A DNA stretch of 64,000 nt from Escherichia phage JEP8: the sequence record MT764208.1. One strand, written 5' to 3'. Below are positions 27,259 through 62,064 of this stretch, in pieces. Each line of letters starts with the position of its first letter. Position 1 is the stretch's first letter. Under the pieces are notes generated by a model. The model saw only the letters and a program-made list of their open reading frames with translations. It had not been told where the DNA came from and searched no databases. The position numbers were made by a program, and so were the translations under genes.

Positions 27259-27266
27259 TATAAATA
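27259..27266 (+). promoter_or_regulatory. T4-type late promoter TATAAATA for gene 34
   Basis: exact TATAAATA about 28 nt upstream of the gene 34 ATG, followed by AAGGAG RBS. Confidence 0.7.
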
Positions 27267-27294: not shown

Positions 27295-30200
27295 ATGGCA
27301 GATTTTTCTCAACATTTCAAGGCCACATTTGGCTTTGACGCTGGTAATGAAAAGGTCGTCAATGTAGCATTGGCTGATAAGAATGTCAACACCGATGCGG
27401 TCAACGTTGAATTTTTCAATTACCATAATGGTATTACTCAGTATGACACAACTCGCGGTTATGATCAATACGGAACTACAATCTATCAAAACCGTCCGTA
27501 TTATGCAAAAGAAGATATCACAAAACCAGCAGGTGATTTTGACCCGACTAAATGGCAAGCACTGCGCACGGACCCACGTTGGGATTATATTGCAGCAACT
27601 TCCGGTGATACTCCTTTACAGTCTGGTGATTATATCGCAGCAGATGGTCAATTTGCAAACTTGACTTTCTCTATGCCAACTAAACCAGCAGAGGGAGACA
27701 CTATAACAGTAAAAGATATCGGTGGCAAGTGTGGTGTTAACGAATTATCGTTCTTGAGTTCAGGACATGAGTTTTACCATAACGGTAATGTGTATAACCG
27801 AAAATGGTATTGCACTACCCCGTATGCAATGAACTATTTCATCTTTGTTCGTAATCGTTGGCATGTTTATCAGACAGGAACAGAGCCACGCGGTGTGTAC
27901 GCACAGCCAGCGATTGATGCTATTCAAATGCAGAATGGTGATCAGGTCTTTCGTCGTAGTTCGTTGGGTAATATTACCTTAGTGCTTCCTAAGTTTGCCA
28001 ACAATGGCGACATGATCCAGACTACAGACCTTGACGGATTAACCGCAACCAACCACGTTACGGTTAAAGTTCATGAGCACGCAGAAGAACAATCAATTGG
28101 CACGTCCGGTCTAAAAGAGATTATCGGTAAGCGTAGCGGTCATGGTGTATTCATCTTTGACAAGACGGAAAACTTATGGCGTTTGTGGGATGGTGATCAG
28201 TCTGTTCGTCTTAAACCGATCATCGATGACACTCGCTTGCAACCTAATAGCTATGTTGCTGTATTTGGTGGTCGTGATGTTACTCTGACGCTGCCGACCA
28301 ATGTCGAGCCGGGTGATCGTATTCAAGTTTCTATGCAGTATATGCACGGAAACCAGAATTGCCGTATTATCACCCCCACAGAGGATACAAAAATCCTTAT
28401 GCAGAAAAACATGGTTCAGTTTCCTAAGCGTAGCGAGTACCCATTCAATGGGACCGATACATGGACTGGAGTGTCTGAATTGTCTTTCAACGCTGCAAAT
28501 GATTATGTACCTTATCTGGAGTTCTCTTATTCAGAAGGTGATGATGGTAAGAAATACTGGTTGGTGGCACATGCTCACCCGATTGTAGAACGAGTAGATC
28601 CGACTCGTAAAGACCGTGTTGGTGTAATTGCACTGGCTACCCAGGATGAAACAAACAAAAACCATGAAGATAATCCTAGCGACGAAGTTGCGGTGACTCC
28701 AAAGGTTCTGGCTAATAAAACAGCCAACGAAACTCGACGCGGTATTGCTCGCATTGCAACTCAAGCGGAAACGCATCAAGATACTGGTTCCAACTTCCTG
28801 GATGATGTTATCGTTACGCCTAAAAAGTTAAATGACTGTGTTGCTACCGAAGCCCGTCGTGGTGTGATGGAAATTGCAACCCAGCACGAAACCAATGAAG
28901 GTTTAGACGATACCCGCGCTATTACTCCTAAGAAATTAGAAGAACGTCGCGCTTCCGAAGATCTCGCTGGTATTGCTGAAATTGTTCAGGTTGGCGGTAG
29001 TGCTGCCGCTCGACGTGGCGAAGCTGGTACAGGGATCTATAACATCAACGACCATGCTAAAATTGTTACGCCAAAAAACATCAACGAGGTCAAGGCGACC
29101 GAAACTTCCCGTGGTGTTGGCTATCTGGCAACTGACGCGGAAGTGCAAGGGGCTACAGAATCAACCCCGCAAGATGCTTTACTAATCACGACTCGCACGC
29201 TAACGAAACGTACTGCTACCGAATCGCGCACTGGTATCGCTGAAATTGCAACTCAGGAAGAAACAAACTTAGGTCAAAGTGATAACCATATCATCACGCC
29301 TAAAAAGCTGCATACTCGCCGCGCAACGGAAACTTTACACGGTTTAGCAGAAATTGCAACTCAGCCGGAATTTGACGCAGGTCTTGACGATGCTCGCATT
29401 TCTACCCCATTGAAGATTAAAACCTTCTTTGAGAATGCACAGCGTTTGAAAGTAGATCCGACTCAGGGGCTTAACCTTACTGGTGATTTGTGGCAAGGTA
29501 TCATGATCCGTGGTCTGGACGCAACCGAAGACACAAAAGGTGTCGCTAAAGTTGCTACTACTCAGCTTACGGATGCTGGTCAAGATGATACTACAATCAT
29601 CACGCCTAAAAAGCTGCAAGACAAAAAGGCCACAGAAGGTAAAGAAGGTATTATCCGAGTTGGTACTCAAGCCGAAACCGTGGCTGGTACACTGGCTAAT
29701 GTAGCAATTTCTCCGAAGAACTTCAAATATGTTGTTCAGACAGAGGATACATGGAAAGCAACCGAAGCGCGTCGTGGTTTCTTGAAAGTTGCCACTCAGG
29801 AAAACTGTTTTGTTGGTGATAATCTGCAAGGTTCTACTCAAGAACTAGGAAACTACCAGCATGACGGAATTGCTGTTACTCCTAAAGGATTAAACTACGC
29901 TCTTGCTAATTTCTTACCTAAGATGGCAACCGCTCAGAATAGTTTGAAATTGGGTAACGTAGAGGCCGCTAAATGGGCGCGTAGAGACATTGACCAGACC
30001 ATAGAGAGCAATTACACGTTTAATAAAAACGTTAACGTGAAGGGCGATTTAGGGTGCTTAAAATCCGGTTCCTTTGAAACTCTGTCTGTGACTAAGAACT
30101 CTACTGATGTTCCGAGTAATGGTCATCTGGTGTTGGGTGAGCGTGGAGTTGACGGTCACACCGGAATTACATTGCATGGCACAACCGCATCGGAAGGCAT

Positions 30201-31035
30201 GAAAAACTCCTGGTCTATTATCGTTGGTGGTACTGGAACGGCGCAAGCAGTTAATAGTGGCGCTATCGCTTTCGGTCAAATCAATGATGGTGGAGTCGTC
30301 GAGCATTACGCCTTTGCTATGGAACACAATGGCGACGCGACAGCATATAGAGACTTTATTGCAGGTCGCAACCTGTATGCGAAACAAGGCGGTTTATACA
30401 TTGTTGACCAGTCTAATCCGGCAATGACTCGTTCCCCAGATGGTATGCTGAATATCGGTCACGGTGGAAGTGTTAACATCAAGGCAGGTCATCAAACGTT
30501 AACTACAGAGATCGCCGGACAGAAATATCAGATCGTACACGCAGGAAACGCCGACGAAGTTCTTAACCGTCGGTTTGTTAAGAATGCTGGCGATACAATG
30601 GTCGGTAAGCTGACTATGGATAATGCGCCTATTGTTTCTGTTAAACATGAAGCTAGCGCGGCAACCGCTCCGGCAATTGGTAACATCGGTTTCTGGAATA
30701 TGCGAGTTACTACCCAGAACATCAAAGAAACTTATCCAGAGAAGAAAAACGGTACTCTGATGCAATGGGGTACTGACGCGGACGGGCTTACCCAGCTTTG
30801 GTCCCCTGATGGTACTCATAAACATTATATCCGTTCCGGTACTGGTGGTCAATGGACCGCATGGGGTGAAATTTACACCAAACAGAATAAGCCTACCGCT
30901 CAGGAAATCGGGGCAGTAGTTGCAGAAGGTGGTTTAATGAACTCTATGACGGTGCGTGACTGGATCAAGGTTGGTAATGTTAAAATCATCGCCAATAATC
31001 TGACTCGTACCGTAGATTTTATCTGGGAAGACTAA
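27295..31035 (+). CDS. 34: long tail fibre proximal subunit (T4 gp34 homolog)
   Basis: 1246 aa; extensive blocks shared with T4 gp34 (ISTPLKIKT, SPKNFK...TW.A, RRGIARIAT repeats, C-terminal VRDWIKVGNV). Confidence 0.93.
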   Translation: MADFSQHFKATFGFDAGNEKVVNVALADKNVNTDAVNVEFFNYHNGITQYDTTRGYDQYGTTIYQNRPYYAKEDITKPAGDFDPTKWQALRTDPRWDYIAATSGDTPLQSGDYIAADGQFANLTFSMPTKPAEGDTITVKDIGGKCGVNELSFLSSGHEFYHNGNVYNRKWYCTTPYAMNYFIFVRNRWHVYQTGTEPRGVYAQPAIDAIQMQNGDQVFRRSSLGNITLVLPKFANNGDMIQTTDLDGLTATNHVTVKVHEHAEEQSIGTSGLKEIIGKRSGHGVFIFDKTENLWRLWDGDQSVRLKPIIDDTRLQPNSYVAVFGGRDVTLTLPTNVEPGDRIQVSMQYMHGNQNCRIITPTEDTKILMQKNMVQFPKRSEYPFNGTDTWTGVSELSFNAANDYVPYLEFSYSEGDDGKKYWLVAHAHPIVERVDPTRKDRVGVIALATQDETNKNHEDNPSDEVAVTPKVLANKTANETRRGIARIATQAETHQDTGSNFLDDVIVTPKKLNDCVATEARRGVMEIATQHETNEGLDDTRAITPKKLEERRASEDLAGIAEIVQVGGSAAARRGEAGTGIYNINDHAKIVTPKNINEVKATETSRGVGYLATDAEVQGATESTPQDALLITTRTLTKRTATESRTGIAEIATQEETNLGQSDNHIITPKKLHTRRATETLHGLAEIATQPEFDAGLDDARISTPLKIKTFFENAQRLKVDPTQGLNLTGDLWQGIMIRGLDATEDTKGVAKVATTQLTDAGQDDTTIITPKKLQDKKATEGKEGIIRVGTQAETVAGTLANVAISPKNFKYVVQTEDTWKATEARRGFLKVATQENCFVGDNLQGSTQELGNYQHDGIAVTPKGLNYALANFLPKMATAQNSLKLGNVEAAKWARRDIDQTIESNYTFNKNVNVKGDLGCLKSGSFETLSVTKNSTDVPSNGHLVLGERGVDGHTGITLHGTTASEGMKNSWSIIVGGTGTAQAVNSGAIAFGQINDGGVVEHYAFAMEHNGDATAYRDFIAGRNLYAKQGGLYIVDQSNPAMTRSPDGMLNIGHGGSVNIKAGHQTLTTEIAGQKYQIVHAGNADEVLNRRFVKNAGDTMVGKLTMDNAPIVSVKHEASAATAPAIGNIGFWNMRVTTQNIKETYPEKKNGTLMQWGTDADGLTQLWSPDGTHKHYIRSGTGGQWTAWGEIYTKQNKPTAQEIGAVVAEGGLMNSMTVRDWIKVGNVKIIANNLTRTVDFIWED

Positions 31036-31068: not shown

Positions 31069-32208
31069 ATGACACAAGATATAGAATTACGCAACACTGG
31101 AATTAGGTTTGCGCATTTCGATGAGGACTCCGCGACATTTACCAGCATTTCAGAAAACAACTCTGTGATGTATAAGCTGGAAGTGCGCGGATCTAATGCG
31201 GATTCTACCAAACCAGCAAGGATTAGATTTAATGGAGTGGAGATCGTTGGCACTGGCTATGAAAATGGCCTAAATTTTAAAGTTCTTACTCCAACTGGAC
31301 AACTACACGAAGAAAAGGTATTCTATGGTCGCGGTGCTGTTTTGGCAATGCGTGATTATCTTTCTTTGCTGAAAGGTGACTATATCATTGCGATGGCAAC
31401 GCATGGAGAATTGTTTGCAGATCCGGTAAGTGATGTTGTATTTTCTAAGCTGGGTTCTGTATCATTCCCGAATCACATTTTGTTACAGCAAATGCCTCGT
31501 GTATCCTATGCAGCAATTTATTCTACGAAAATGGGTAAAATTGTGTGCGAAGGTATGCAAGCGACCCACGGGGAAGGACAAGATTCATCTATACAAATTG
31601 AGAAAGTCTATGATACTATAGATGATCTTGCTATAACAGGAACACCACAACGATTTTTAGATTATCCGGTTGAGTATGTTAGCGAAGATGCCGAACATTT
31701 CGAGCTAATACAATGGCCTCACGATGAGATCAGCGCCCCACTTGAGGATTTTAACATAAAGGCAGGTGACAAACTATCAATATCCTTTGAATTGTTCCGT
31801 GATAGTGCCGCAGCCGCAGCCAACGTAACAGCGCGTTTCTATCACAACTACTTCACCGATGGACAATATAAAACTGGTGTTCGATACAATGCCAGCAAAA
31901 AAGATCAATGGGAAAAGTTTGAAGCCGTCTATACCGTACCGGAAGGAGTTGATAGTGTAGTAACTGGTTGTATCAGATATCCAACCAACTCAAATGAAGG
32001 TATTGTTAAAATTAGAAACATACTAATAACGCCGATCAGTGGAGTCGTCAAAACTACTGGTCCTACTTCATTTGGTGTTAATGGTGTTAGAACAACTCAT
32101 ATTCAGGATAACGGTGATTTTACTAACCCTGTAATGAGTCTTCTTAAGCTGCCTAGAGACAATAAACATATCACATCCAACAACTTTAAAGAGTTCGATG
32201 TTGATTAA
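31069..32208 (+). CDS. 35: long tail fibre hinge connector (T4 gp35 homolog)
   Basis: 379 aa (T4 gp35 372 aa) in the gene 35 position. Confidence 0.8.
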   Translation: MTQDIELRNTGIRFAHFDEDSATFTSISENNSVMYKLEVRGSNADSTKPARIRFNGVEIVGTGYENGLNFKVLTPTGQLHEEKVFYGRGAVLAMRDYLSLLKGDYIIAMATHGELFADPVSDVVFSKLGSVSFPNHILLQQMPRVSYAAIYSTKMGKIVCEGMQATHGEGQDSSIQIEKVYDTIDDLAITGTPQRFLDYPVEYVSEDAEHFELIQWPHDEISAPLEDFNIKAGDKLSISFELFRDSAAAAANVTARFYHNYFTDGQYKTGVRYNASKKDQWEKFEAVYTVPEGVDSVVTGCIRYPTNSNEGIVKIRNILITPISGVVKTTGPTSFGVNGVRTTHIQDNGDFTNPVMSLLKLPRDNKHITSNNFKEFDVD

Positions 32209-32370: not shown

Positions 32371-32378
32371 TATAAATA
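32371..32378 (+). promoter_or_regulatory. T4-type late promoter TATAAATA for gene 36
   Basis: exact TATAAATA ~33 nt upstream of gene 36 ATG. Confidence 0.65.
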
Positions 32379-32411: not shown

Positions 32412-33902
32412 ATGGCAGATTTGAAATATGGATCTACTGTAGGTGGATCTCCCATTTGGACGCAAGGAAACTTGACGATCCAGCCAGCAGGGGATCAGCT
32501 TTTCTACAAAGGTCATAAAATCTATACCGCTTTTGATAGACCTTCGGCTACCGATTTTGATGCTGTTAGTGCATCCGAAGGTGGCACATTTCAAAAGCAA
32601 GTTCATTTCGAGGAAGGTTTAAGCGTAGGTAGCGCATCGGCTGGAGAAACCAAAAAGAATGGTATCTTTAAAGGTCAGAGTGATGCTGCTAATTTTGACG
32701 GTGTAAGCTGGGGTTTGCATTCATGGAAGTCAATAGGCTTTGTTAATGCCCGTGATGGCGTTATTATGGCGTATATTGACACCACAACGGGCGAATTTAA
32801 GTCTAAAGGGACTATCGAAGGGACAACCATTAAAGACACAGGTCAACGCGTCTATAGCCCTGTTAATAAACCAACGAATAATGATTTAGATTTGGTGTCT
32901 CGTCGCGGTGATACTCTCACAGGAACATATAATTTAAACACTGTCACTGTTAAACTATCGGTTGATTCTAAATTAATTGCAAGGGAACGTGATTTAATTA
33001 ATTTTGATGCGACTAAGATCTATTATGGTAACGTTCTTGATACGTTGGTCTTCCGAAGTAAAGATGAGCCTACCATTTTTGTTAATGGCAGAGAAGGTCG
33101 TTTTTATCACACCAATAATAAACCAACTAAAGCCGATGTTGGGCTAGGCAATGTCACCAATGATGCACAGGTTAAACGTGCTGGTGATATTATGGAAGGT
33201 AACTTGCAAGCGCCTAGAATGTTGGCGACAAACGATCCTGCTGGTCCGAATGAATTGGTTCGTTTGAGCTACTTTGAGAGAAAATCAATGGTAGCAAATC
33301 CAACCATCATTGGAAACGTTGATTGGAACACTCTTATTAATCGCGGTATCTATCGTGTGGAAAATGCTGGGTCGGGTACTAATAAACCGTCTGATAGCTA
33401 TTATAACGGCGTTTTGATGGTATATCGCCCAGAAGATGCGGTCGGTACTCGTCGAATTGTTCAGGTGTATTATCCTGAATCTATTGACCATCCGATGTGC
33501 TGGCGTTCTTGTTCTAATGAATCATGGACTGCATGGAACTATGTAGATCACCGTAAATTAGCCGATATTCGCTATGTTAACGTAACTGGCGATACCATGA
33601 CAGGACCGTTAACTGTTCCGGCTGCAAACGGTGTTAGAACGGCTAAAACTAACTATAACGGGGATAACTGTTATGCGGCGTTAAGCGGTGCTGATGGTAC
33701 TGCTATGATTCACCGCATTAGTGATATTAAAGGGACCGAAAAGCTGGGGATCACCCATGACTCAAAGGTCGTGTTTTTCCGTTCTAGAAACAATACTCAA
33801 ACCGTGGACCGCTATCAGCTTTATCATGAAGGTAATAAACCTACTCCGGCTGATGTTGGAGCGGTTCCACTTAATGCGGTGATTGATTTTGGTACTTTCT
33901 AA
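32412..33902 (+). CDS. 36: long tail fibre distal connector (T4 gp36 homolog), enlarged
   Basis: N-terminus MADLKYGSTVGGSPIWTQGN...PAGD matches T4 gp36 (MADLKVGSTTGGSVIWHQGN); 496 aa versus 221 in T4. Confidence 0.8.
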   Translation: MADLKYGSTVGGSPIWTQGNLTIQPAGDQLFYKGHKIYTAFDRPSATDFDAVSASEGGTFQKQVHFEEGLSVGSASAGETKKNGIFKGQSDAANFDGVSWGLHSWKSIGFVNARDGVIMAYIDTTTGEFKSKGTIEGTTIKDTGQRVYSPVNKPTNNDLDLVSRRGDTLTGTYNLNTVTVKLSVDSKLIARERDLINFDATKIYYGNVLDTLVFRSKDEPTIFVNGREGRFYHTNNKPTKADVGLGNVTNDAQVKRAGDIMEGNLQAPRMLATNDPAGPNELVRLSYFERKSMVANPTIIGNVDWNTLINRGIYRVENAGSGTNKPSDSYYNGVLMVYRPEDAVGTRRIVQVYYPESIDHPMCWRSCSNESWTAWNYVDHRKLADIRYVNVTGDTMTGPLTVPAANGVRTAKTNYNGDNCYAALSGADGTAMIHRISDIKGTEKLGITHDSKVVFFRSRNNTQTVDRYQLYHEGNKPTPADVGAVPLNAVIDFGTF

Positions 33903-33972: not shown

Positions 33973-36741
33973 ATGGCAGATTTAAGCAGAATCCAATTTA
34001 AACGTACTAGCACTAAAGGCCGTCGACCTGATGCTGGTACGATGAATCCGGGGGAATTGGCAATCAACCTTGCGGATCAATATCTTCTTACTAAAAATGA
34101 TTCCGGTGCTATTATCAATTTAAGTTGTCCTCCGGTTTATGACCGCGATGTTACAATGGCAGGTAAGGTTAAAGGTAATAATTATATCTTAAGTAAAACC
34201 GCTAACTATCTGGAAGATCAGACAGCGCGAGATCTTAACTACTTTGGTGCTTTCCGTACCAATGGTCTTGATGGTTTTCTCGAACTCACGCTAAACGTTC
34301 CTCATTCTTCTGGTGTTCAGCATGGTCGAGGATTTACTTTCCAGTATGGACACACTGGATCGCGTGTAGAAACTTATGGCTATAATAAAGAAGGTCAAAA
34401 AGCATTTAGCTATAAAATGTATCATGAAGGTGATAAACCAACTCCAGGAGAATTGAACGTTTATAGCAAACAAGAAGTTGACCGTATGTTTGTTAAGAAC
34501 GTTAAACTTGCTACATCTCCTAGTGATATCGTTGAAGGCTATTTTAAATTAGCAACTGCAATGATTCCACAAAACGGTCTTAGCGTATTTTTCCGTATTC
34601 ATGGTGGTAACGGATATAACGTTACTGCATACGATCAAGTTGATATTGTAGAAATTGTTATTCGCAGTGGAAATGGTCGCCCTAAAGGTGTTAACGTTAT
34701 TGCATATCGCCGAAATACAAACAAATCATTTGATGTTTTGGCTGTTAATACTTCTGGTGATAACTATGATATCTATGTGAAATATCAGCGTTACACTGAT
34801 AACGTTATTGTTGAATTTGGTAAAAGTGTTGGTGTTAATCTGGTAGTTCATGACGTTCCAGATTTTGTTGCTGATCGTCCTGCTGGCGATAATGTTATTG
34901 GCGGTCGCGCGGTAACTCTTTTTAATACTGAAAATAAACGTGGTGTGTTAAGTTTTGATGATAACACACAAAACAGCTATGACATTGTTCACTTGAGTAA
35001 TGATAGGGGTACAGGACGAAAATATATTCGTAAATTCCGTAGCAACTATAATGAAATGATCTGGCATGAGACGGTTCAAGGTGCTACTTATCGTCTGGCT
35101 ACTGGTGCAACTGATGTTCAGGATATTCTAACCGTTGAATCTGTTAGCTCAATTTCTGGAACTCATAAAGGTAATATTACTTCTGGTCGTATGCTGTTAA
35201 ATGGTGGTAGTAATGTTATTACCTTGCGGCGTCCTGCTGGTCAATCCAACCATATTGCGTTTCAAGATAATCGTACTGGAGATATTACCCGTCAAGGATG
35301 GATCGGTTATGCCAATGCTAATACTAACGTTTTTGAATGGTATAGTGATGTAGGTGGCAGTTCTATTCGTCAACATATCGACGGACAGATCGAATTTCAG
35401 ACAGGTAGCATGAAGCGAGTTTATACTAACGGACAATTCATTTCATTATATGCCGATGGCTTCCGTACTGTATATGGTAACTATGGTTCATGGTGGCGAA
35501 ATGACGGTAGTAACGTTTATCTGATGAGCACAAAATCAGGCGACACTATGGGTCCGTGGAATACCTTTAGGCCGTTCATCTATAGCCTAGCCAATGGTAA
35601 CGTTACATTGGGGGGTAGTGATGCTGGCAACCATTTAATGCGTCTCAATAATGAAAGTAAACGAGTTGAAGTGAACGCAACCACACATCTTGGAAGCAGA
35701 CTGTATTGGGAACGTAACGACGAAGGATCGAAATCTGTATTCTTTGTTAAATCTTGGGGTAATGAAACTCGCGCTCAAGTGTGGGAACTTGCAGACGAAA
35801 CAAGCTATCATCTATATTCTCAGCGTGATTCTAACGGATCGATTCAATTTCGTGTTGCTGGTAGTTTGGAAACTGGAGGCCGCGCCCAGATTAATGGCGA
35901 TTTGGTCGTTACTAATGTTCTTCGTACAAATAACCAAATACAGATTTATAGAGATAACAACAAAGAGATCTGGTTTAAAGATGCTAATGGTACTAACCGT
36001 GGTGTTATCTGGGGAGATGGTGGCGGCAAAATGAGATTGCGTAACTATTCTGGTGGAGAATATGACCATGTGTTCGAAGCTGGTATGATTCGCCTTGAGC
36101 GTGGTTACGCCAATGGACAAGGTGCTGGGTTGATTCGCGGAGAAGTACAAGGTGGAGCATGGTCTGAATGGAGAACTCGCGCTGCTGGCTTATTGGTTGA
36201 CTGTCCAAATGCTCAAACTTCCGCATATAACGTATGGAAAGCGACCAAATGGGGTTTAGACCACATCGCGGCAATGGGTGTTCATGTTCCTAACGGTAAT
36301 GTTGGTAACTCTATTGCGCGTCTGCATGTTGGTGGCACTAACTTTGACTTTAACGCCTCCGGTGATTTCCAGGCAGGTCGTAACGGTAATTTTAACGATG
36401 TTTATATTCGCTCTGATGCTCGCCTTAAAATCAATAAGGAAGAGTATAAAGAGAATGCCACCGATAAAGTTAATCGCTTGACTGTGTACACCTACGATAA
36501 GGTTAAGTCTTTGACGGACCGCACTGTTATCGCTCATGAAGTTGGTATTATTGCTCAGGATCTTGAAAAAGAATTGCCGGAAGCAGTAACAACTTCTAAG
36601 ATCGGCGATCCTGATAAGCCAGAAGAGATCTTAACAATTTCTAACTCTGCTGTCAACGCTCTTTTAATTAAGGCGTTTCAGGAAATGAGCGAAGAATTGA
36701 AAGCCGTTAAAGCTGAACTAGCGGAACTTAAAAAGAATTAA
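33973..36741 (+). CDS. 37: long tail fibre distal subunit / receptor-binding protein (gp37) with C-terminal intramolecular chaperone domain
   Basis: 922 aa in gene 37 position; C-terminal ~110 aa (SDARLKINKEEYKE...IAQDLEKELPEAV...coiled coil) resembles the auto-cleaving S74-type chaperone of T5 pb1 / endosialidases. Confidence 0.85.
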   Translation: MADLSRIQFKRTSTKGRRPDAGTMNPGELAINLADQYLLTKNDSGAIINLSCPPVYDRDVTMAGKVKGNNYILSKTANYLEDQTARDLNYFGAFRTNGLDGFLELTLNVPHSSGVQHGRGFTFQYGHTGSRVETYGYNKEGQKAFSYKMYHEGDKPTPGELNVYSKQEVDRMFVKNVKLATSPSDIVEGYFKLATAMIPQNGLSVFFRIHGGNGYNVTAYDQVDIVEIVIRSGNGRPKGVNVIAYRRNTNKSFDVLAVNTSGDNYDIYVKYQRYTDNVIVEFGKSVGVNLVVHDVPDFVADRPAGDNVIGGRAVTLFNTENKRGVLSFDDNTQNSYDIVHLSNDRGTGRKYIRKFRSNYNEMIWHETVQGATYRLATGATDVQDILTVESVSSISGTHKGNITSGRMLLNGGSNVITLRRPAGQSNHIAFQDNRTGDITRQGWIGYANANTNVFEWYSDVGGSSIRQHIDGQIEFQTGSMKRVYTNGQFISLYADGFRTVYGNYGSWWRNDGSNVYLMSTKSGDTMGPWNTFRPFIYSLANGNVTLGGSDAGNHLMRLNNESKRVEVNATTHLGSRLYWERNDEGSKSVFFVKSWGNETRAQVWELADETSYHLYSQRDSNGSIQFRVAGSLETGGRAQINGDLVVTNVLRTNNQIQIYRDNNKEIWFKDANGTNRGVIWGDGGGKMRLRNYSGGEYDHVFEAGMIRLERGYANGQGAGLIRGEVQGGAWSEWRTRAAGLLVDCPNAQTSAYNVWKATKWGLDHIAAMGVHVPNGNVGNSIARLHVGGTNFDFNASGDFQAGRNGNFNDVYIRSDARLKINKEEYKENATDKVNRLTVYTYDKVKSLTDRTVIAHEVGIIAQDLEKELPEAVTTSKIGDPDKPEEILTISNSAVNALLIKAFQEMSEELKAVKAELAELKKN

Positions 36742-36781
36742 GGAAACTCCCAGGGAAGGGAACTACTAAGGAGAAACGGCT

Positions 36782-37021
36782 ATGGTCTATAATATCGTCA
36801 TTGGCGCTTTGTCTAATTTCGGAATGAAATTATTGTCAAAGTTAATTAGTGAAAAGATGCTCACTAAAATTTTCTTCTATTGCGCTCGTCGTCTTGCGGC
36901 TTATACCAATACGCCAATTGATGATCGTTTTGTGGAAGAACTTTATAAGGAGTTTAATAAAGATCAGTCAGAAGATAGTAACGAGCAAGATAAATCTAGT
37001 GATAGTCAACTACCTAAATAA
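36782..37021 (+). CDS. hypothetical 79-aa protein in the position T4 uses for gp38
   Basis: AAGGAG RBS 8 nt upstream of ATG; amphipathic N-terminus, acidic Ser-rich C-terminus. Confidence 0.5.
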   Translation: MVYNIVIGALSNFGMKLLSKLISEKMLTKIFFYCARRLAAYTNTPIDDRFVEELYKEFNKDQSEDSNEQDKSSDSQLPK

Positions 37022-37054: not shown

Positions 37055-37711
37055 ATGCAAGTTTCTGAAAAAGGGAAAGACTTTGCTATCTCAAATGTCC
37101 TGCGCGCTATTTTCACAACTAAAAGCACGGAGTTGCTCGTACTTCGTGTTTTTGCTGCCGTCGTGTTGTCTATATTGGCATTTGTCGTTTATAGTAAAAA
37201 CGAGTTATTTGCGCTTTATAAAGAGACTCGTTATGAGACTTATGCTCACATTCTCCAGGTAGAGAAAGACCGCAATTTTGATAATGCAGCACAGGAGCAG
37301 TTACAGATAGTTCATGTGTCGGCTGATGCCGATTTTTCTGCTGTTTTTAGTTTTCGTCCGAAAAACCTAAACTATTTTGTTGATTTGGTGGCATATGAAG
37401 GAAAGCTACCACATACAATCGATGAAAAGAATTTAGGCGGATTCCCTATCAATAAAACGAGTGAAGAATATCGTAGACATCTTTTAGGTAAATCATATTT
37501 TACCGATAAAGATTTCCAGTATATTCCATCAAGAGAAAAGAAATTAGAGAATATCGATATAGGTTTCATGTATTCTTGTCCTATATTCAATCTCGATAAT
37601 GTCTATTCTGGTAGTATCGCCATTTCATGGAAGAATAAACCGGATATTGACATTGAGAATTTAGATACTCTTTGCAATCAATCTGCCAGAATCCTCGGAA
37701 GGATTAGATAA
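37055..37711 (+). CDS. t: holin (T4 gpt homolog)
   Basis: 218 aa as in T4 T; N-terminal TM segment; blocks LEQLQIVH.S.EADFSAV.SFRPKNLNYFVD..AYEGKLP, MYSCP.FNLDN.Y.G, ARILGR match T4 holin. Confidence 0.92.
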   Translation: MQVSEKGKDFAISNVLRAIFTTKSTELLVLRVFAAVVLSILAFVVYSKNELFALYKETRYETYAHILQVEKDRNFDNAAQEQLQIVHVSADADFSAVFSFRPKNLNYFVDLVAYEGKLPHTIDEKNLGGFPINKTSEEYRRHLLGKSYFTDKDFQYIPSREKKLENIDIGFMYSCPIFNLDNVYSGSIAISWKNKPDIDIENLDTLCNQSARILGRIR

Positions 37712-40007: not shown

Positions 40008-40766
40008 TTACTTGCAAACGTATTGGTCTACATCAATTGCTCCACCGAATGTAGGATGACGTTTTTCAAATCGAATAGTTCCGTCGTTTGGTTCGAAAAC
40101 GGAGTATTCATATAGATCTTTCTTGCCAACATTCTTATAAAACCCGCCTTTAGTCATAACGGTTTCTTGTACGTTTGCTTTGTGTACGTTGTATTCATCA
40201 ATGTATACAAAATCAACCATCTTCCCATTTTTAATTGTTACTTTAAGATCACCCGGTTGATTTCCATATTTGGCATACAGTGGCGCTTCTTTAATTTTTG
40301 TGGAAATTCCATCTTTCATACTCCACTCATAACGAACGGTGCATTGATAGGTAAAAGTTTCGACCTTCGGTTCTTCTACCACTTTTGCTTCCTGTTTCTG
40401 TTGTTCTTCTTCAACCTTTGCAGAAGTCTCTGAATCGCTTTCTGACGAGGTTTCTTCTTTAGGTAATACATTCATCAAGTTTTGGATTTGAGCGTTATAT
40501 ACAGCCTCCAGTGGCTGAATCTGCCCGATATTGATCATTGTATCACGAACAGTTTTATTCCAGTTTCGTTGCTCTTGTTTCAGAGACGGATCAATCTTAA
40601 CAGCCTTAACATACACTTCATGAAGTTTAGAGTCCAGTGCGGAGATAGACTCATTAGCACAAATAAACTTCTCTGATTTGGTAGTAGCTTTAGCGCAATC
40701 AAAGGACGCAGCATTAGCACCGAAAGCAGTAGCGGAAAGAACGATAGCAGCGATAATGTTTTTCAT
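40008..40766 (-). CDS. secreted DUF1311 / LprI-like (lysozyme-inhibitor-like) domain protein
   Basis: signal peptide MKNIIAAIVLSATAFGANA; then DCAKATTKSEKFICANESISALDSKLHEVY...QRNWNKTVRD typical of DUF1311; extra ~130-aa C-terminal domain. Confidence 0.55.
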   Translation of the reverse strand: MKNIIAAIVLSATAFGANAASFDCAKATTKSEKFICANESISALDSKLHEVYVKAVKIDPSLKQEQRNWNKTVRDTMINIGQIQPLEAVYNAQIQNLMNVLPKEETSSESDSETSAKVEEEQQKQEAKVVEEPKVETFTYQCTVRYEWSMKDGISTKIKEAPLYAKYGNQPGDLKVTIKNGKMVDFVYIDEYNVHKANVQETVMTKGGFYKNVGKKDLYEYSVFEPNDGTIRFEKRHPTFGGAIDVDQYVCK

Positions 40767-44895: not shown

Positions 44896-45897
44896 TTAGT
44901 AATGGCTAAACCCTTCGGTCACATCTTCAACCACATAGTAACGATGACAGCGCATTTTGGCATTCGCATAATCTTTCGGGATACTTACAACGTGACGCGG
45001 ATCAACTTTACATTTAATGATTCGGCCTCGTCCACCGCCATAGTGCGGAATATAGTGTTTCGCTGCAACGTGGAGGCCATTAGAGCAAGTGCGATCATCA
45101 TCCGGGTCCACGTCTTTACGCTTCATTTTAACCGTGCGACCTGGGCTATTATCAAACGTATGCGTAAAGAAATCTTTATAATCAACATCAACACGTTTCC
45201 ATGCATAGAAACAACCATCTTCCACGATCTCAATGTCGTTGTGCTCTAAGAAGTCAAACAGACGATCTACGGCCTTACGGCTAGGGTTTTTCTTGCACTT
45301 CTCAAAGAAGTTCAGATAGTGCGTATATGGCTTATTCTCTTTAATCGACTCCACAACTCGACGAGTCAGATTATTATCAAGAACAATATTATGATAATAC
45401 ACAATACCATTTTCGATACGGAAAGCGCCGTGATAATATACTTCAACCGCTTTCTTAATGTCAATCAGCGTAATAGCTTTGATGAAATCATTATGTTTAA
45501 TCGCTTCCAGTGCTTCATTAAAGTTAACATGCGACGGATCAGCAGTATAAACAATGTCACCACATGTAATAGTAATAAACTTAGTTGAGGCTATTGCTAC
45601 GATTTTTGAGGAAGTAGTCACGGGCTTTTTTGCGCGTTCACCGCCTTTTCCTTTACTGGTTTTACGGCGTGCTTTACGTTTTTCTAGTGCCTTGCGACCT
45701 TCCGCTACTGCGTCTTTCTGAATCAGTAATACACGGGAGGCAGTACGACGAGATACCCCAAATGCTGCCGCAAGTGCTTCGCGGGTAGTAAACTTACCTT
45801 CGCCCCACTGTTTAGCCAGTTTGATTTGTTTTTCAGAATCCAGGCATTGAACGTTACGGTCAGAGACGGTGATTTTTGCTTTAGTCATAGTATTCAT
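44896..45897 (-). CDS. rIIB: rIIB protein
   Basis: KAVDRLFDFL...DIEI.EDG.FYAWK, TFDNSPG..VKM, HPR.VVSIP.DY..AKMR...Y.VVEDVTE match T4 rIIB. Confidence 0.92.
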   Translation of the reverse strand: MNTMTKAKITVSDRNVQCLDSEKQIKLAKQWGEGKFTTREALAAAFGVSRRTASRVLLIQKDAVAEGRKALEKRKARRKTSKGKGGERAKKPVTTSSKIVAIASTKFITITCGDIVYTADPSHVNFNEALEAIKHNDFIKAITLIDIKKAVEVYYHGAFRIENGIVYYHNIVLDNNLTRRVVESIKENKPYTHYLNFFEKCKKNPSRKAVDRLFDFLEHNDIEIVEDGCFYAWKRVDVDYKDFFTHTFDNSPGRTVKMKRKDVDPDDDRTCSNGLHVAAKHYIPHYGGGRGRIIKCKVDPRHVVSIPKDYANAKMRCHRYYVVEDVTEGFSHY

Positions 45898-45949
45898 TCC
45901 TCTATTAGTTGGGCGACTATCGCCGCCCGATTCACATCATTATACCAGA

Positions 45950-46081
45950 ATTATTTTGCTTCTACAACCTTGCGGATTGTGCGGTCTGATACATTATAGA
46001 TTCGTGCCAGTTCGCCTTTAGTCAAGCCGCGAGCGTATTGTTTACGGATGGTTTCTTTCTGGATAGCGGTCAGTTTAGTCA
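45950..46081 (-). CDS. 43-aa helix-turn-helix micro-protein (MTKLTAIQKETIRKQYARGLTKGELARIYNVSDRTIRKVVEAK)
   Basis: hand-translated; GAGGTGA RBS 5 nt upstream; resembles the N-terminal HTH of rIIB. Confidence 0.5.
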
Positions 46082-46093
46082 TAATATCACCTC

Positions 46094-48202
46094 TTAAAAT
46101 TTAACATTCTTAACCAGTTTCATAAAGTCTTGTGCGCGTTTGTCGTTATGCAGAATACGATACCAGTTATCTACAATATCATACAGTAACGGGCTATTCT
46201 CTTTAAACTTCGCACAAACTGCTTTAATTCGTTCGTTTGCTGCCGTGAATTTTTCATCACAGATCTTTTTAGTTTCTTCGTCCATAATCCAACGAGTAAT
46301 AAGGAGTAACTTGGAAACCTCTTTATTATAATGACGACCGTACAGTCTGTCAATAAATTCTGGAATACAGCGTTCTAATTCATCGTCATGAAACAACATA
46401 GTGATCACACCCAGATATTCGCCATACCCCAGATGATTGGTCTTAACCTTCTTAGCCAGACCAGCCAGCTTACCGCGAACAAATTCTAGCGCACATTCCA
46501 ATTGTTCGTCAACGAGATATTTTTGTGTCTCGTTACGGGTAATAATATACTTTGTTACCCCGAAGTAGTCAAGCGCCGTGTGTAATGTATTTTCATTATA
46601 GATCGATTGACGGCTACGGCTTTCGAATGCATCACCCACGCGGAACATGTGCAAGCCTGATAACTCGCGAATCTCTGCCGCTTTCATGTGATGGCTGGTT
46701 TTATGCCAACTGTCACCAATCTTTTCCATGATATACACGTTAGGCAGCTTGGGAGTAGCTTCACGTTGTGTACGCTCGGTCTTCTCCGGCTTAACTGCTT
46801 TAGCACGCAGATCATCGGCCTCTGATACCTTAATCACGGTCATTTCAGAATCATCATAATACTGTTTGATGTACTCGAAAGTCTCCATATGTTTTTCGTT
46901 GCGCTGACGGAACACAAGTACCTTTTTATTGATGCCGTATTCCTGGACCATGCCGTTAAGAGTCAGTGCACGCAGTTTCGGTTTATCGGTATCATCAATA
47001 AGACACGTAATATCTTCTTTATGCATCCATACAAAATGCGTAATGTTGTATTGACTGCTAACGAAAGCAGGGCGCAATTTACTGATTGTGTGACGAGTAC
47101 GATACAGAGTATACACCTGACCTTCTACGTCGTTAGGCGAATCTTTACCCGCATTCACAAACTTATTATAGATTGCTACCGGATCATCCCACTTCCCGAT
47201 CTTACCCATCTTGCTAATAATATTGCGTTGAGTCGATGAATACTCGCTCATAAATTGCGCAAGTTTACGCTCTGTTTTAATGTTGGCGATCTTTTCTTTA
47301 ACCTTTTCCAACATCATTTCATTGATTTCTGCAATACGTTTTTCGATGTTTGCTTTAGTCTCAATTGACAAGTGAACTTCTTCACGCGATGGCATCAGGT
47401 CCAGATCACCCAACTCAAAATTAATGTAAATGGTCTGGTGCTGGCGGTTTACAGCTTCTAACCATGTTCCGCGAACATATTCATACGGGATCGGATACTG
47501 AATCTTACCCATGATTGCATATACTACATAGGAATCGTTATCACGCCCATTGCAAACATAATAATTATCAAAGCTAGGGAAATAATTAATTTCGATTGCA
47601 TTGATATTAGGTTTGTGTTCCCCAAAATGACGCAGTACAAATTGCGCTTCTCGATGCCATGTCTGAATATCTTTTTCTTTCACCGGAATAGTGATTTTCA
47701 GACCATTGTCTTCATAGGTCGGTTCGTCGAAAATCTGCACCATTTTCGGCATAGAGTTTTGCACAAATGCCGTAAAGCCATAAGCGCGACCATTGTAATA
47801 GTTTACGATTGTAAAGGTGTCAGTGTAGCTATAAGCAGATTTCGCACCTAAACCAAAAGATCCGATATAATCATTAGTTTGGTCTTTTGTTGATTCAAAG
47901 TAAACCGTAAACAGTTGTTCTAATTCTTTCTTAGACGGAATACCCGTACCATAATCACGCACAGAGAAATAAGGTTCAATTGCGGTAGGCAAATGAATAT
48001 CAAACGGACGATCTAAGGTTCCGGCTTCTTTGTGAGTGTCGGTAGCATTGCACGAATACTCACGGACGCAAGCACGTTCACAATATTGATAAGTGTTCTT
48101 AGAAAGCACCATAAAAGCCTTGCTACTTGCTTTCAGTGAAAAATCAACCGCACCGCTCAAGTCACTGCCAAATACTTCTTCATTATCAATATGCATTTTC
48201 AT
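46094..48202 (-). CDS. rIIA: rIIA protein
   Basis: 702 aa (T4 rIIA 725); N-terminal GHKL-ATPase-like motifs (DYGTGIP, GSFGLGAKSAY); upstream of rIIB. Confidence 0.9.
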   Translation of the reverse strand: MKMHIDNEEVFGSDLSGAVDFSLKASSKAFMVLSKNTYQYCERACVREYSCNATDTHKEAGTLDRPFDIHLPTAIEPYFSVRDYGTGIPSKKELEQLFTVYFESTKDQTNDYIGSFGLGAKSAYSYTDTFTIVNYYNGRAYGFTAFVQNSMPKMVQIFDEPTYEDNGLKITIPVKEKDIQTWHREAQFVLRHFGEHKPNINAIEINYFPSFDNYYVCNGRDNDSYVVYAIMGKIQYPIPYEYVRGTWLEAVNRQHQTIYINFELGDLDLMPSREEVHLSIETKANIEKRIAEINEMMLEKVKEKIANIKTERKLAQFMSEYSSTQRNIISKMGKIGKWDDPVAIYNKFVNAGKDSPNDVEGQVYTLYRTRHTISKLRPAFVSSQYNITHFVWMHKEDITCLIDDTDKPKLRALTLNGMVQEYGINKKVLVFRQRNEKHMETFEYIKQYYDDSEMTVIKVSEADDLRAKAVKPEKTERTQREATPKLPNVYIMEKIGDSWHKTSHHMKAAEIRELSGLHMFRVGDAFESRSRQSIYNENTLHTALDYFGVTKYIITRNETQKYLVDEQLECALEFVRGKLAGLAKKVKTNHLGYGEYLGVITMLFHDDELERCIPEFIDRLYGRHYNKEVSKLLLITRWIMDEETKKICDEKFTAANERIKAVCAKFKENSPLLYDIVDNWYRILHNDKRAQDFMKLVKNVKF

Positions 48203-61261: not shown

Positions 61262-61290
61262 ATTTTACTACTTTAATTATTCTATGTCAA
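61262..61290 (-). promoter_or_regulatory. promoter TTGACA-N17-TAAAAT upstream of gene 40 position ORF
   Basis: consensus -35, 17-bp spacing. Confidence 0.5.
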
Positions 61291-62026
61291 CAAATTTCCA
61301 ATTTGGAAAGTCTGGACACATACAACGACGGCGAACGGTTCCGCGCTCGTTTCCTAGTACCTTAGATACTTCCGATACAGATTTATAGATCACACCATCA
61401 ACAGATACAGCCTTTCGGTCTTTTCTGTTTTGTTTCTTGCTCTTTTCTCGTCTGGCTTCGACATTCTCCGAATCATTCCATTGTCTCTTTGCTGTCTCGC
61501 GGGAAGATATTGTCTTTTGTTCTTTAACAATATCTTTAACAAGTTGTTCTTGTCCTGTTATCTTCGCCCACACATTAACAGACTGAATAGCATTAGCCTC
61601 ACTCATTCCCCAACGTTTACCGGATATATTCTTACGACGAACGCGTAGAAATTCGTTAAAGACTTCTTCGCATTGGTGCATATAATCACGAAAACCATAT
61701 TTCTTAGCCCATGCCTCTTTAATTGCACCAGACATATTTTCGGCAATACGTCTACGCACCCATGCATACTCCTTATTATTGCGACCGTGACTGGTCATAC
61801 ACATCATACGTGCAGCCATAATAAGACCAACATTCTTAGGATACATTTTAGCTAACAATAAGTGAGCGGTAAAGTGTTCCTCCGGTGTCAATGGAACGAG
61901 ATTTTCCTGTTCATCCGTGCCGCCCATACAACGTGGTTTAACGTGATGGATCTCTATGTATCCGGTCGGCTTCTCTCGGTTTCTTGCTCGTTCAATCAAT
62001 CTTTCGTAATGTGTTTTGTAGTTCAT
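61277..62026 (-). CDS. HNH homing-endonuclease-like protein (free-standing)
   Basis: YIEIHHVKPRCMGGTDEQENLVPLTPEEHFTAH HNH motif plus C-terminal DNA-binding-like module (SVDGVIYKSVSEVSKVLG); start ambiguous (ATG 62038 or 62026). Confidence 0.65.
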   Translation of the reverse strand: MNYKTHYERLIERARNREKPTGYIEIHHVKPRCMGGTDEQENLVPLTPEEHFTAHLLLAKMYPKNVGLIMAARMMCMTSHGRNNKEYAWVRRRIAENMSGAIKEAWAKKYGFRDYMHQCEEVFNEFLRVRRKNISGKRWGMSEANAIQSVNVWAKITGQEQLVKDIVKEQKTISSRETAKRQWNDSENVEARREKSKKQNRKDRKAVSVDGVIYKSVSEVSKVLGNERGTVRRRCMCPDFPNWKFVDIE

Positions 62027-62039
62027 GTGATCCTCCATA

Positions 62040-62064
62040 TGAAAAAGGGGCATAAAGCCCCTTA
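62040..62064 (-). terminator. intrinsic terminator after uvsX
   Basis: hairpin GGGGC-UUUAU-GCCCC followed by TTTTTC; overlaps the annotated start region of the HNH gene. Confidence 0.55.

Follow-up and report, generated by a model that had tools for sequence, protein, structure and literature searches.

Results

Gene 37 and its surroundings

The DNA analysed here, referred to as the window, is a stretch of 64,000 nucleotides from Escherichia phage JEP8 (sequence record MT764208.1), and all coordinates are counted from its first letter. It represents a Krischvirus (RB49-like) phage whose DNA is 93% identical to that of GEC-3S; among the phages in the collection searched, none is more closely related. 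On the + strand, an open reading frame at 33973..36741 (922 codons plus stop) constitutes gene 37 and encodes the precursor of the long tail fibre distal subunit; its product matches phrog_1699 (‘long tail fiber protein distal subunit’) with an E value of 6e-179. It is followed on the same strand by an ORF of 79 amino acids (36782..37021) and by gene t (37055..37711), whose 218-aa product is a T-type holin according to both Pfam (Phage_holin_T, E 4.5e-61) and PHROGs (phrog_860, holin, E 5e-88). The interval between gene 37 and t contains only the 79-aa ORF and, measuring just 313 nt, leaves no room for a gene of the size of gene 38, which is thus not located directly downstream of gene 37.

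A motif search for T4-type late promoters returned two sites on the + strand, at 27259 and at 32371. The second one (TATAAATA, 32371..32378) lies 5' of gene 36. Between gene 37 and t the motif scan gave no further late promoter, and no terminator-like site was found between the stop codon of gene 37 and t. The motif at 32371 is likely the start of a late transcript spanning genes 36 and 37, the 79-aa ORF and t, which would then be co-transcribed.

The conservation of gp37 among 81 phage variants is unevenly distributed over its length. Residues 1-380 are conserved to about 90% and residues 801-922 to 95-99%, while the part in between (380-800) is variable with a minimum of conservation at residues 560-720. 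In some variants the entire tip domain has been swapped and only its final 17 residues are retained.

A Peptidase_S74 module at the C-terminus of gp37

The original prediction had described the last ~110 residues of gp37 as an intramolecular chaperone similar to Peptidase_S74, and this assignment is borne out by the Pfam score, an invariant dyad and a profile search that reaches characterised members of the family. Peptidase_S74 (PF13884) is recognised in residues 814-873 with an E value of 1.3e-11 and 45.1 bits, more than the Pfam cut-off of 22 bits, and the match covers the model completely (positions 1-58 of 58). The module as a whole comprises residues 814-922 (36412..36738, +) and thereby forms the final 109 residues of the distal subunit of the long tail fibre. 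While the proposed length was accurate, the start that had been given for the module, position 36330, corresponds to residue 786 and lies 28 residues upstream of the boundary found here. In a profile search the module matched S16 gp37 (6F45_A, E 2.5e-15), the self-cleaving domain of MYRF (7DC3, E 4e-5) and a tail fibre (8JOV, E 2e-4), and the SDARLK sequence of JEP8 was aligned both to SDRRIK of S16 and to the corresponding MYRF motif. Its identity amounts to 98% with RB49 and 75% with RB33.

The catalytic role of the serine and lysine that form the S74 dyad is established for endosialidase and for T5 pb1. In gp37 of JEP8, Ser814 and Lys819 constitute such an S-x4-K dyad within SDARLK; both residues are invariant in 120 of 120 homologues, all of which also contain the longer motif YIRSDxRLK. 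By analogy, Ser814 is predicted to be the nucleophile and Lys819 the base of the gp37 chaperone. The cut is predicted to precede Ser814, whose codon starts at nt 36412, so that the putative autocleavage junction Arg813/Ser814 (NDVYIR^SDARLK) occupies 36409..36414 (+). This position rests on a published junction and an alignment: for the T2-like fPS phages the junction DVYIR^SDGRLKI has been reported (PMC7917993), which is the same as that of JEP8 over DVYIR^SD, and the JEP8 junction also aligns with the S16 site DLNVS^SDRRIKK. For S16 there is a report that the chaperone is released autoproteolytically, and for T2-like phages such a release has been inferred (PMC7917993).

The distal tip preceding the predicted junction

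Based on homology, residues ~701-813 (36073..36411, +) would form the distal tip domain of mature gp37 and are predicted to serve as a docking platform for gp38. When residues 701-922 were compared with the PDB as a single sequence, the best match was again S16 gp37 (6F45_A, E 5.6e-5), and the tip region aligns to this fragment, which had been crystallised together with gp38. T2 gp37 matches gp37 of JEP8 with an E value of 3e-15. Residues 641-813 share 48% identity with gp37 of RB33 (E 1e-41), a phage in which gene 38 adjoins gene 37 in the order 37-38-t, and 83% identity with the fibre of an E. coli prophage, which is 84% identical to gp37 and after which a Gp38_N protein is encoded. The T4-type domains gp37_C and gp37_trimer gave no Pfam match in gp37 of JEP8, whereas both were detected in a Felix O1-like fibre used as control. 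Likewise, T5 pb1 chains in the PDB showed no sequence match to residues 701-922 at E values of up to 10. An AlphaFold2 model of these residues as a monomer, based on an alignment of 26 sequences, reached a pLDDT of only 41.7 and was unusable for a fold search, as is expected for a tip that is an intertwined trimer. By homology, we predict that the tip acts as a docking platform for a gp38 adhesin after removal of the chaperone.

The location of gene 38 and the source of receptor specificity

The claim that the gp38 slot is replaced holds in one sense, as an unrelated ORF does occupy the slot, but not in the sense that the chaperone has taken the place of the gp38 adhesin, since relatives carry a displaced gene 38. 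The 64-kb window itself contains no gp38 gene, neither for an adhesin nor for a chaperone of the T4 type; tblastn with four gp38 proteins produced only noise (best E 3.1), and a scan for glycine-rich gp38-like ORFs found none. In RB49, however, gene 38 is found at 45367..46143 and in GEC-3S at 45726..46505, in both cases annotated at a distant locus, and each of the two proteins matches Pfam GP38 and Gp38_N with E values around 1e-72. All close relatives that we examined, namely RB49, GEC-3S, Makalu_002, JK32, Sf20 and E26, encode gp38. The gp38 proteins of Makalu_002 and JK32, whose gp37 is 91-93% identical to that of JEP8, fall into one 90% cluster; JEP8 gp38 is not among the 15 members listed for it. 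Krischvirus gp38 proteins also retain the N-terminal docking motif GW(V/I)GSSAV.ETGQRWM. That RB49 g38 has been displaced and that a small ORF occupies the slot adjacent to g37 has been described before (PMC3157838, Trojet et al. 2011). Judging from these relatives, gene 38 of JEP8 is expected to be displaced by ~55 kb, which would put it ~27 kb past the end of the window, on the opposite strand and between the dam and rI/tk regions, where it also lies in RB49 and GEC-3S. The separation from gene 37 is the known Krischvirus exception, a matter of gene order that would leave the mechanism unaffected.

In phages of the T2/T6/S16 type, gp37 carries the same chaperone, and removal of the latter uncovers the docking surface for the gp38 adhesin (PMC7917993; PMC3157838). 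For RB49, it has been reported that the gp37 chaperone is removed prior to the attachment of gp38 and that the host-range mutations E230K and Y231S map to gp38 (PMC9569957). Moreover, similarity in gp38 determines the recognition of Tsx, OmpF or OmpA in Straboviridae including Krischvirus isolates (PMC12032242). These reports do not support the earlier suggestion that the determinants of host range lie just N-terminal of ~36330. Given that both the tip and the chaperone of gp37 are homologous to those of gp38-using phages and that the RB49 host-range mutations reside in gp38, receptor specificity should be sought mainly in gp38 and not in the segment immediately upstream of nt 36330. Likewise, T4 had been chosen as the comparison for this fibre end, with its gp38 as a chaperone, but T2, T6 and S16 are the appropriate counterparts.

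A built-in chaperone could also make gp38 unnecessary, so that the phage would lack this protein altogether and the gp37 tip preceding the cut would bind the receptor itself in the manner of T5 pb1. The 64-kb window without a gp38 gene and the variation of the gp37 tip among relatives would agree with such a scenario, as would the fibres of Epseptimavirus, which share the last ~100 residues of the tip (38% identity over 103 residues) and the chaperone (43%) with JEP8; in the T5-like phage oselot, a search that covered 89 kb (79%) of its 113.5-kb genome yielded no gp38-like gene. Still, a full-length gp38 is encoded at a conserved distant locus in every close relative examined, and those tip homologues that are closer to JEP8 than the T5-like ones, in RB33 and in the E. 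coli prophage, occur together with a gp38 or Gp38_N protein. In addition, JEP8 shares its predicted cleavage junction with T2-like phages that use gp38, and the host-range mutations of RB49 that place specificity in gp38 were obtained experimentally. We therefore regard a gp38-free JEP8 as very improbable. The early region of oselot contains an isolated ‘tail fiber protein’, oselot_90, which was considered as a displaced analogue of gp38 and rejected, as it looks like a coiled-coil protein with no Pfam match and no similarity to gp38.

A division of labour between both proteins can be envisaged as well, with gp38 capping the fibre and binding an outer-membrane protein and gp37 residues ~560-813 contacting a polysaccharide such as the O antigen and thereby affecting host range. 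Among the 81 gp37 variants, conservation is lowest in residues 560-800, and the exchange of whole tip domains up to the last 17 residues would be in line with such a role, as would the related T5-like tip that apparently functions without an adhesin. Certain O antigens have in fact been reported as alternative primary receptors of RB49-like phages (PMC9569957). The same study, however, assigned the recognition of O antigens to gp38 because gain-of-host mutants were changed in gp38 alone. Mosaic variation of the gp37 shaft is frequent in T-even phages and can be produced by recombination alone, without any receptor function (PMC3157838). Overall, we consider such a dual recognition improbable; if it were true, RB49-like phages would bear two specificity determinants per fibre. 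Although we favour gp38 as the main carrier of specificity, gp37 itself may contribute to receptor binding, given the strong diversification of residues 380-800 and the related T5-like tips that apparently do without gp38.

The 79-aa ORF between gene 37 and the holin gene

The 79-aa ORF (36782..37021, +) is preceded by a strong Shine-Dalgarno sequence read from the DNA, AAGGAG (36768..36773, +), 8 nt before the ATG at 36782, and it ends 33 nt 5' of the holin gene t. It is equivalent to RB49ORF251w/Dc5 and, being conserved to 95-100% in 54 phage records, very likely a real gene. As had been proposed, it is the sole ORF between gene 37 and the holin gene and is unrelated to gp38, with no Pfam match to GP38 or Gp38_N. 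The description of the protein as acidic applies to its C-terminal tail but not to the protein as a whole, which contains 12 D/E and 11 K/R residues and has a pI of 5.3.

By sequence, the protein belongs to phrog_402 (E 5e-20) and to the PM2 gp l / P18 family. The latter assignment was made via precomputed Pfam annotations of homologous clusters: PF26925 (Phage_PM2_Gpl) is annotated on 75 of 75 of them, including clusters that are 91-92% identical to the 79-aa ORF. Aligning the profile of the family directly to PM2 gp l with hhalign yielded a probability of 92.3% and an E value of 5.6e-7 over 42 columns. In the AlphaFold2 model (pLDDT 69) the protein has three helices, and its acidic tail is disordered; in a Foldseek search of the model against BFVD the significant matches were confined to the protein's own family. 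A membrane protein was considered as well: the maximum Kyte-Doolittle mean over 19 residues is only 1.31, but in homologues the first helix is more hydrophobic.

The genomic neighbourhood of the homologues varies. In three unrelated phage groups, that of JEP8 included, the gene has a holin or an endolysin gene as its neighbour. In Suspvirus mistaenkt the homologue overlaps the start codon of the holin gene, and in a Shewanella prophage it follows the endolysin gene (Phage_lysozyme). In RB49-like, Felix O1-like and Erwinia phages it is located directly 3' of a fibre gene. Homologues outside of lysis cassettes occur in GAP52, LAh_6 and a Vibrio phage; in the two podoviruses GAP52 and LAh_6 the gene is part of the structural module, with needle, tail or fibre genes as its neighbours. 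PM2 reportedly possesses an accessory lysis protein that takes part in the disruption of the outer membrane. In the published record, P17 and P18 of PM2 are termed ‘lysis-associated’, and homologues of P18 have been reported in RB49 and Felix O1 (PMC1950889). By analogy, the 79-aa ORF probably encodes an accessory lysis factor acting together with the holin t.

Its position directly after the fibre gene in RB49-like, Felix O1-like and Erwinia phages and its placement in the structural module of GAP52 and LAh_6 could also be taken to suggest that the protein is a fibre-assembly or accessory virion protein, i.e. a stand-in chaperone or attachment factor, rather than a lysis protein. Trojet et al. 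brought up small ORFs following g37 as possible adhesins or chaperones (PMC3157838). This interpretation is at odds with the homology to the lysis-associated gp l of PM2, a tailless phage without fibres, as well as with the overlap with the holin start in Suspvirus and the preceding endolysin gene in the Shewanella prophage. Furthermore, the neighbouring fibre in Felix O1-like phages is of the T4 gp37_C type and does not carry an S74 domain, which shows that the ORF occurs with more than one type of fibre. We thus consider a role in the fibre rather unlikely. The chaperone gp57A of T4 has the same size as the product of the 79-aa ORF and is also acidic. A gp57A-like chaperone was considered and dismissed, since there is no match to this family and the relationship with PM2 gp l fits better.

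Discussion

We consider it highly probable that the end of the JEP8 fibre locus combines a T2/S16-type fibre end in a Krischvirus genome, a displaced gene for the gp38 adhesin and, following gene 37, lysis genes that include the PM2 gp l-like ORF. According to this model, gp37 would be made as a precursor of 922 amino acids, the final 109 of which, the S74 chaperone, would drive trimerisation and folding of the fibre. The chaperone would then cleave itself off between Arg813 and Ser814, a cut that would leave the gp37 trimer exposed at its distal face. An adhesin of ~259 amino acids, gp38, would dock there via its conserved N-terminal attachment domain, as we infer for JEP8 from its relatives, and its variable C-terminal loops would bind receptors of the OmpA, Tsx or OmpF type or some O antigens. 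The 79-aa ORF would not be a component of the fibre but is probably co-transcribed with t and may contribute to breaking down the cell envelope during lysis.

The S74 fibre end, the displaced gp38 and the PM2-like ORF have all been published previously (Trojet 2011; Efimov 2022; Krupovic and Bamford 2007). For this coliphage of the therapeutic type, a relative of GEC-3S, the practical consequence is that determinants of host range are to be looked for in the distant gp38 and not in the gp37 segment upstream of 36330. Two pitfalls of a general nature become apparent: a gene missing from the position it has in T4 is not necessarily missing from the genome, and a fibre that ends in an S74 chaperone does not necessarily lack a separate adhesin. 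In several phage groups the 79-aa PM2 gp l-like protein is conserved beside the gene of a holin or an endolysin, and in the literature examined we found no report of a functional test of such a protein in any tailed phage.

Among known systems, RB49, Phi1, JSE and GEC-3S share the gene order of JEP8, 34-35-36-37 followed by the small ORF and t. The small ORF is 97% identical to that of RB49. In comparison with the RB49 protein of 979 aa, JEP8 gp37 is a variant of 922 aa with an overall identity of ~60%, most of the divergence falling within residues 380-800. In S16 (PDB 6F45) and in phages of the T2/T6 type, the C-terminus of gp37 is likewise formed by an S74 chaperone, which is ~110 aa long and contains the motif S-D-x-R-x-K. 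Unlike in these phages, gene 38 of RB49-like phages does not lie beside gene 37 but ~55 kb away among genes of the early region, and ahead of its final ~17 residues the JEP8 tip shows only weak similarity to the S16 tip. In T4, gp38 and gp57A serve as chaperones of the fibre. The overall architecture of the T4 fibre is the same as in JEP8, and in both phages one gene lies between 37 and t; however, T4 gp37 lacks the S74 module, relies on the separate gp38 chaperone and contacts the receptor itself through a needle domain at its C-terminus (PMC3157838), whereas folding would be intramolecular in JEP8.

The corresponding domains of endosialidase, T5 pb1 and MYRF belong to the same Pfam family and share the Ser...Lys motif at the start of the domain. 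Receptor binding in T5 pb1 or enzymatic activity in the endosialidases resides in the very domain that comes before the chaperone, whereas the exposed tip of JEP8 gp37 would, by homology with S16 and T2, be a docking platform for a separate adhesin. For the 79-aa ORF, the counterpart is gp l (P18) of the corticovirus PM2, which belongs to the same family (PF26925) and whose gene also lies beside a holin-type gene (gp k, then gp l). PM2 gp l, a protein of 51 aa, has no counterpart to the ~20-residue acidic tail of the JEP8 protein, and while PM2 has an unusual lysis system of its own, JEP8 encodes a T-type holin.

Gene 37 and its neighbourhood

The late genes 34 to t lie on the plus strand as a run within an otherwise minus-strand early region: gene 34 (27295-31035, 1246 aa), gene 35 (31069-32208, 379 aa), gene 36 (32412-33902, 496 aa), gene 37 for the distal long tail fibre subunit (33973-36741, 922 aa), a 79-aa ORF (ORF79, 36782-37021) and the holin gene t (37055-37711, 218 aa; Pfam Phage_holin_T). 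The encoded gp37 matches gp37 of Escherichia phage JEP8 (genome size 165,295 bp; PMC8425383) at 100% identity. At the DNA level, genes 37 to t share 93% identity with Krischvirus GEC-3S and, in parts, 90-94% with RB49, Phi1, JSE and many others. The original prediction described this locus correctly in regard to the ORFs, the S74 domain of gp37 and the lack of a GP38 match in ORF79, but the arrangement is ordinary and already known, since each of its elements has been described before. The functional conclusion, a receptor-binding tip in gp37 with gp38 absent, fails in its central claim: the adhesin gene appears to have been displaced rather than lost.

The gene 36 product is about double the ~220 aa of T-even gp36 (Trojet et al. 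2011, PMC3157838) and matches Phage_T4_gp36 weakly and below threshold (21.4 bits, cut-off 26). The T4-type late promoter motif TATAAATA closely precedes gene 34 (27259-27266) and gene 36 (32371-32378); with three such motifs in the window their number does not exceed chance expectation and their position is the sole support. Among the small early genes downstream of t, a minus-strand 252-aa ORF (40008-40766) with an N-terminus that reads like a signal peptide (MKNIIAAIVLSATAFGANAAS...) occupies the position of RB49ORF260c and carries no functional annotation. Close to uvsX and gene 43, a minus-strand 258-aa ORF with the HNH-like motif IEIHHVKPRCMGG (61277-62053) is set between replication genes and is probably a homing endonuclease insertion.

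The chaperone module of gp37

A Pfam search placed Peptidase_S74 at gp37 residues 814-873 (E 1.3e-11; 45.1 bits vs a cut-off of 22), in agreement with the predicted S74-type chaperone. Its boundary had to be shifted: the proposed start at 36330 corresponds to residue 786, 28 residues ahead of the SDARLK start at Ser814 (nt 36412), which leaves a C-terminal piece of 109 aa. YIR/SDxRLK is kept in 120/120 of the closest gp37 homologues with Ser and Lys invariant. Across 81 phage gp37 variants, conservation reaches 95-99% in residues 801-922, in contrast to the variable residues 380-800. The sole significant match of residues 701-922 to solved structures was 6F45 chain A, a fragment of S16 gp37 crystallised together with S16 gp38; the alignment covers tip and chaperone and sets SDARLK opposite SDRRIK. 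A profile of the module built from five sequences also retrieved 6F45 (E 2.5e-15); weaker hits came from the autoproteolytic domain of human MYRF (7DC3, E 4e-5) and from a further tail fibre (8JOV, E 2e-4). Judged by sequence, the assignment to the S74 family is solid, and we infer that gp37 is autocleaved before Ser814. In S16 the last 113 residues of gp37 are autocleaved at DLNVS^SDRRIKK, exposing the gp38 docking surface, and the junction of T2-like fPS phages is DVYIR^SDGRLKI (PMC7917993), compared with NDVYIR/SDARLKIN in the window.

Variable tip and possible fibre module exchange

The distal half of gp37 is its most diversified part, with an identity minimum at residues 560-720. The most variable stretch among the 81 phage variants spans 35650-36360 (residues ~560-800). 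Some variants carry wholly different tip domains, yet retain the 17 residues that immediately precede the cut. The tip domains of the variants P0051 and P0067 are unrelated, but GDFxAGRNGxFNDVYIR is kept just before the cleavage Ser; because it survives these swaps, this last strand may be required for cleavage and gp38 docking. L-shaped fibres of T5-like Epseptimavirus share 38% identity with the window's gp37 over the last ~100 tip residues and 43% over the S74 chaperone. As no gp38-like gene was found beside the fibre gene of one of them, Salmonella phage oselot (1748-4696 of locus L011), nor within 89 of the 113.5 kb of its genome, a related tip seems able to function without a cap. That gp37 of JEP8 has a secondary binding role is improbable.

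Residues 435-548 (35275-35616) and 597-632 (35761-35868) of gp37 match the trimerisation domain of gp34, the proximal fibre subunit of T4. The gp34 match was obtained with Pfam Gp34_trimer (E 7.5e-24) and PDB 4UXE/5NXF, and the stretches also match the phage Mu fibre protein S (5YVQ); proximal and distal fibre subunits thus have modules in common. Fibres of E. coli chromosomal prophages (1118-1207 aa) are 80-87% identical over 92% of the window's gp37, and strain CP138416 (locus L009, 6001-10577) encodes a 168-aa Gp38_N protein with a different C-terminal part two genes downstream of the fibre. The sequences suggest a recent exchange of fibre modules between virulent Krischvirus phages and temperate siphovirus-like prophages.

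ORF79

ORF79 has a strong ribosome-binding site. Its description as acidic applies to the tail but not to the rest (overall pI 5.3), and its dissimilarity to gp38 was borne out by the Pfam search. It matches phrog_402, a family without assigned function, and has homologues in Felix O1-like, Erwinia, Vibrio, Aeromonas and 7-11-like phages. PF26925 (Phage_PM2_Gpl) is carried by 75/75 homologous clusters, and the family profile aligned to gp l of corticovirus PM2 itself with 92% probability (E 5.6e-7). Felix O1 and RB49 are reported to encode homologues of this lysis-associated protein, P18 (Krupovic and Bamford 2007, PMC1950889). With its 75 clusters the family is a compact one, in which T44, D47 and D48 are invariant; the AF2 model of ORF79 consists of three helices and a disordered acidic tail.

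The lysis-gene context agrees across three unrelated groups: ORF79 ends 33 nt before holin t, the homologue of Suspvirus mistaenkt overlaps the holin start, and that of a Shewanella prophage directly follows the endolysin (L014 4553-5204). In Felix O1-like Suspvirus (L004 4992-5560) a PM2 gp l-like small ORF again follows a fibre gene and precedes the holin gene, and Erwinia Kolesnikvirus (L007 3992-4536) shares this layout with an unannotated small ORF in third place. Homologues of some podoviruses are located within structural modules, which would fit a virion or assembly protein as a minor alternative to the lysis association. In the literature searched, no functional test in a tailed phage is described for the family. 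Since a sequence scan found neither a late-promoter motif nor a terminator dividing gene 37, ORF79 and t, co-transcription of ORF79 with the holin gene is likely.

The displaced gene 38 of RB49-like phages

Trojet et al. (2011, PMC3157838) had already described g38 of RB49 as displaced, with a small ORF in its stead. Gene 38 of RB49 lies on the minus strand at 45367-46143, separated on the circular map from gene 37 by ~55 kb, and GEC-3S carries at 45726-46505 a 259-aa gene annotated 'tail fiber protein; host specificity'. In each of the two proteins Pfam detects GP38 (E ~1e-72) along with Gp38_N (E ~1e-18). The 90% cluster of the GEC-3S protein takes in gp38 of Makalu_002 and JK32, whose gp37 is 91-93% identical to that of the window. 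By synteny, gene 38 would be expected ~27 kb past the end of the window, which itself terminates around gene 43. In keeping with this position, an ORF scan of the 64-kb window yielded no glycine-rich ORF and tblastn with four gp38 sequences returned only noise. Genomic context argues strongly for a gp38 encoded by JEP8 itself.

Related fibres likewise support a pairing of this fibre type with gp38. The E. coli prophage fibre (83% identity in the tip, residues 641-813, and 90% in the chaperone) has its Gp38_N protein (E 3.9e-15) two genes downstream, RB49 gp37 (53% and 98%) has gene 38 at a distant locus, and RB33 gp37 from Tequatrovirus (48% and 75%) is found in the gene order 37-38-t. The gp38 proteins of RB49, GEC-3S and RB33 and the prophage protein all retain the docking motif at their N-terminus. 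In T4, with which the original prediction had compared the window, gp38 serves as a chaperone, but the majority of T-even-type phages follow the design of T2, T6 or S16. In fibres of that design gp37 has the same chaperone; once it is cut off, a gp38 adhesin covers the tip that becomes accessible (PMC7917993, PMC3157838). According to Efimov et al. (2022, PMC9569957), RB49 gp37 sheds its chaperone ahead of gp38 attachment; their host-range mutants of RB49 carry changes in gp38 only, E230K and Y231S. Among Straboviridae including Krischvirus isolates, Gp38 similarity decides the recognition of Tsx, OmpF and OmpA (2025 study, PMC12032242).
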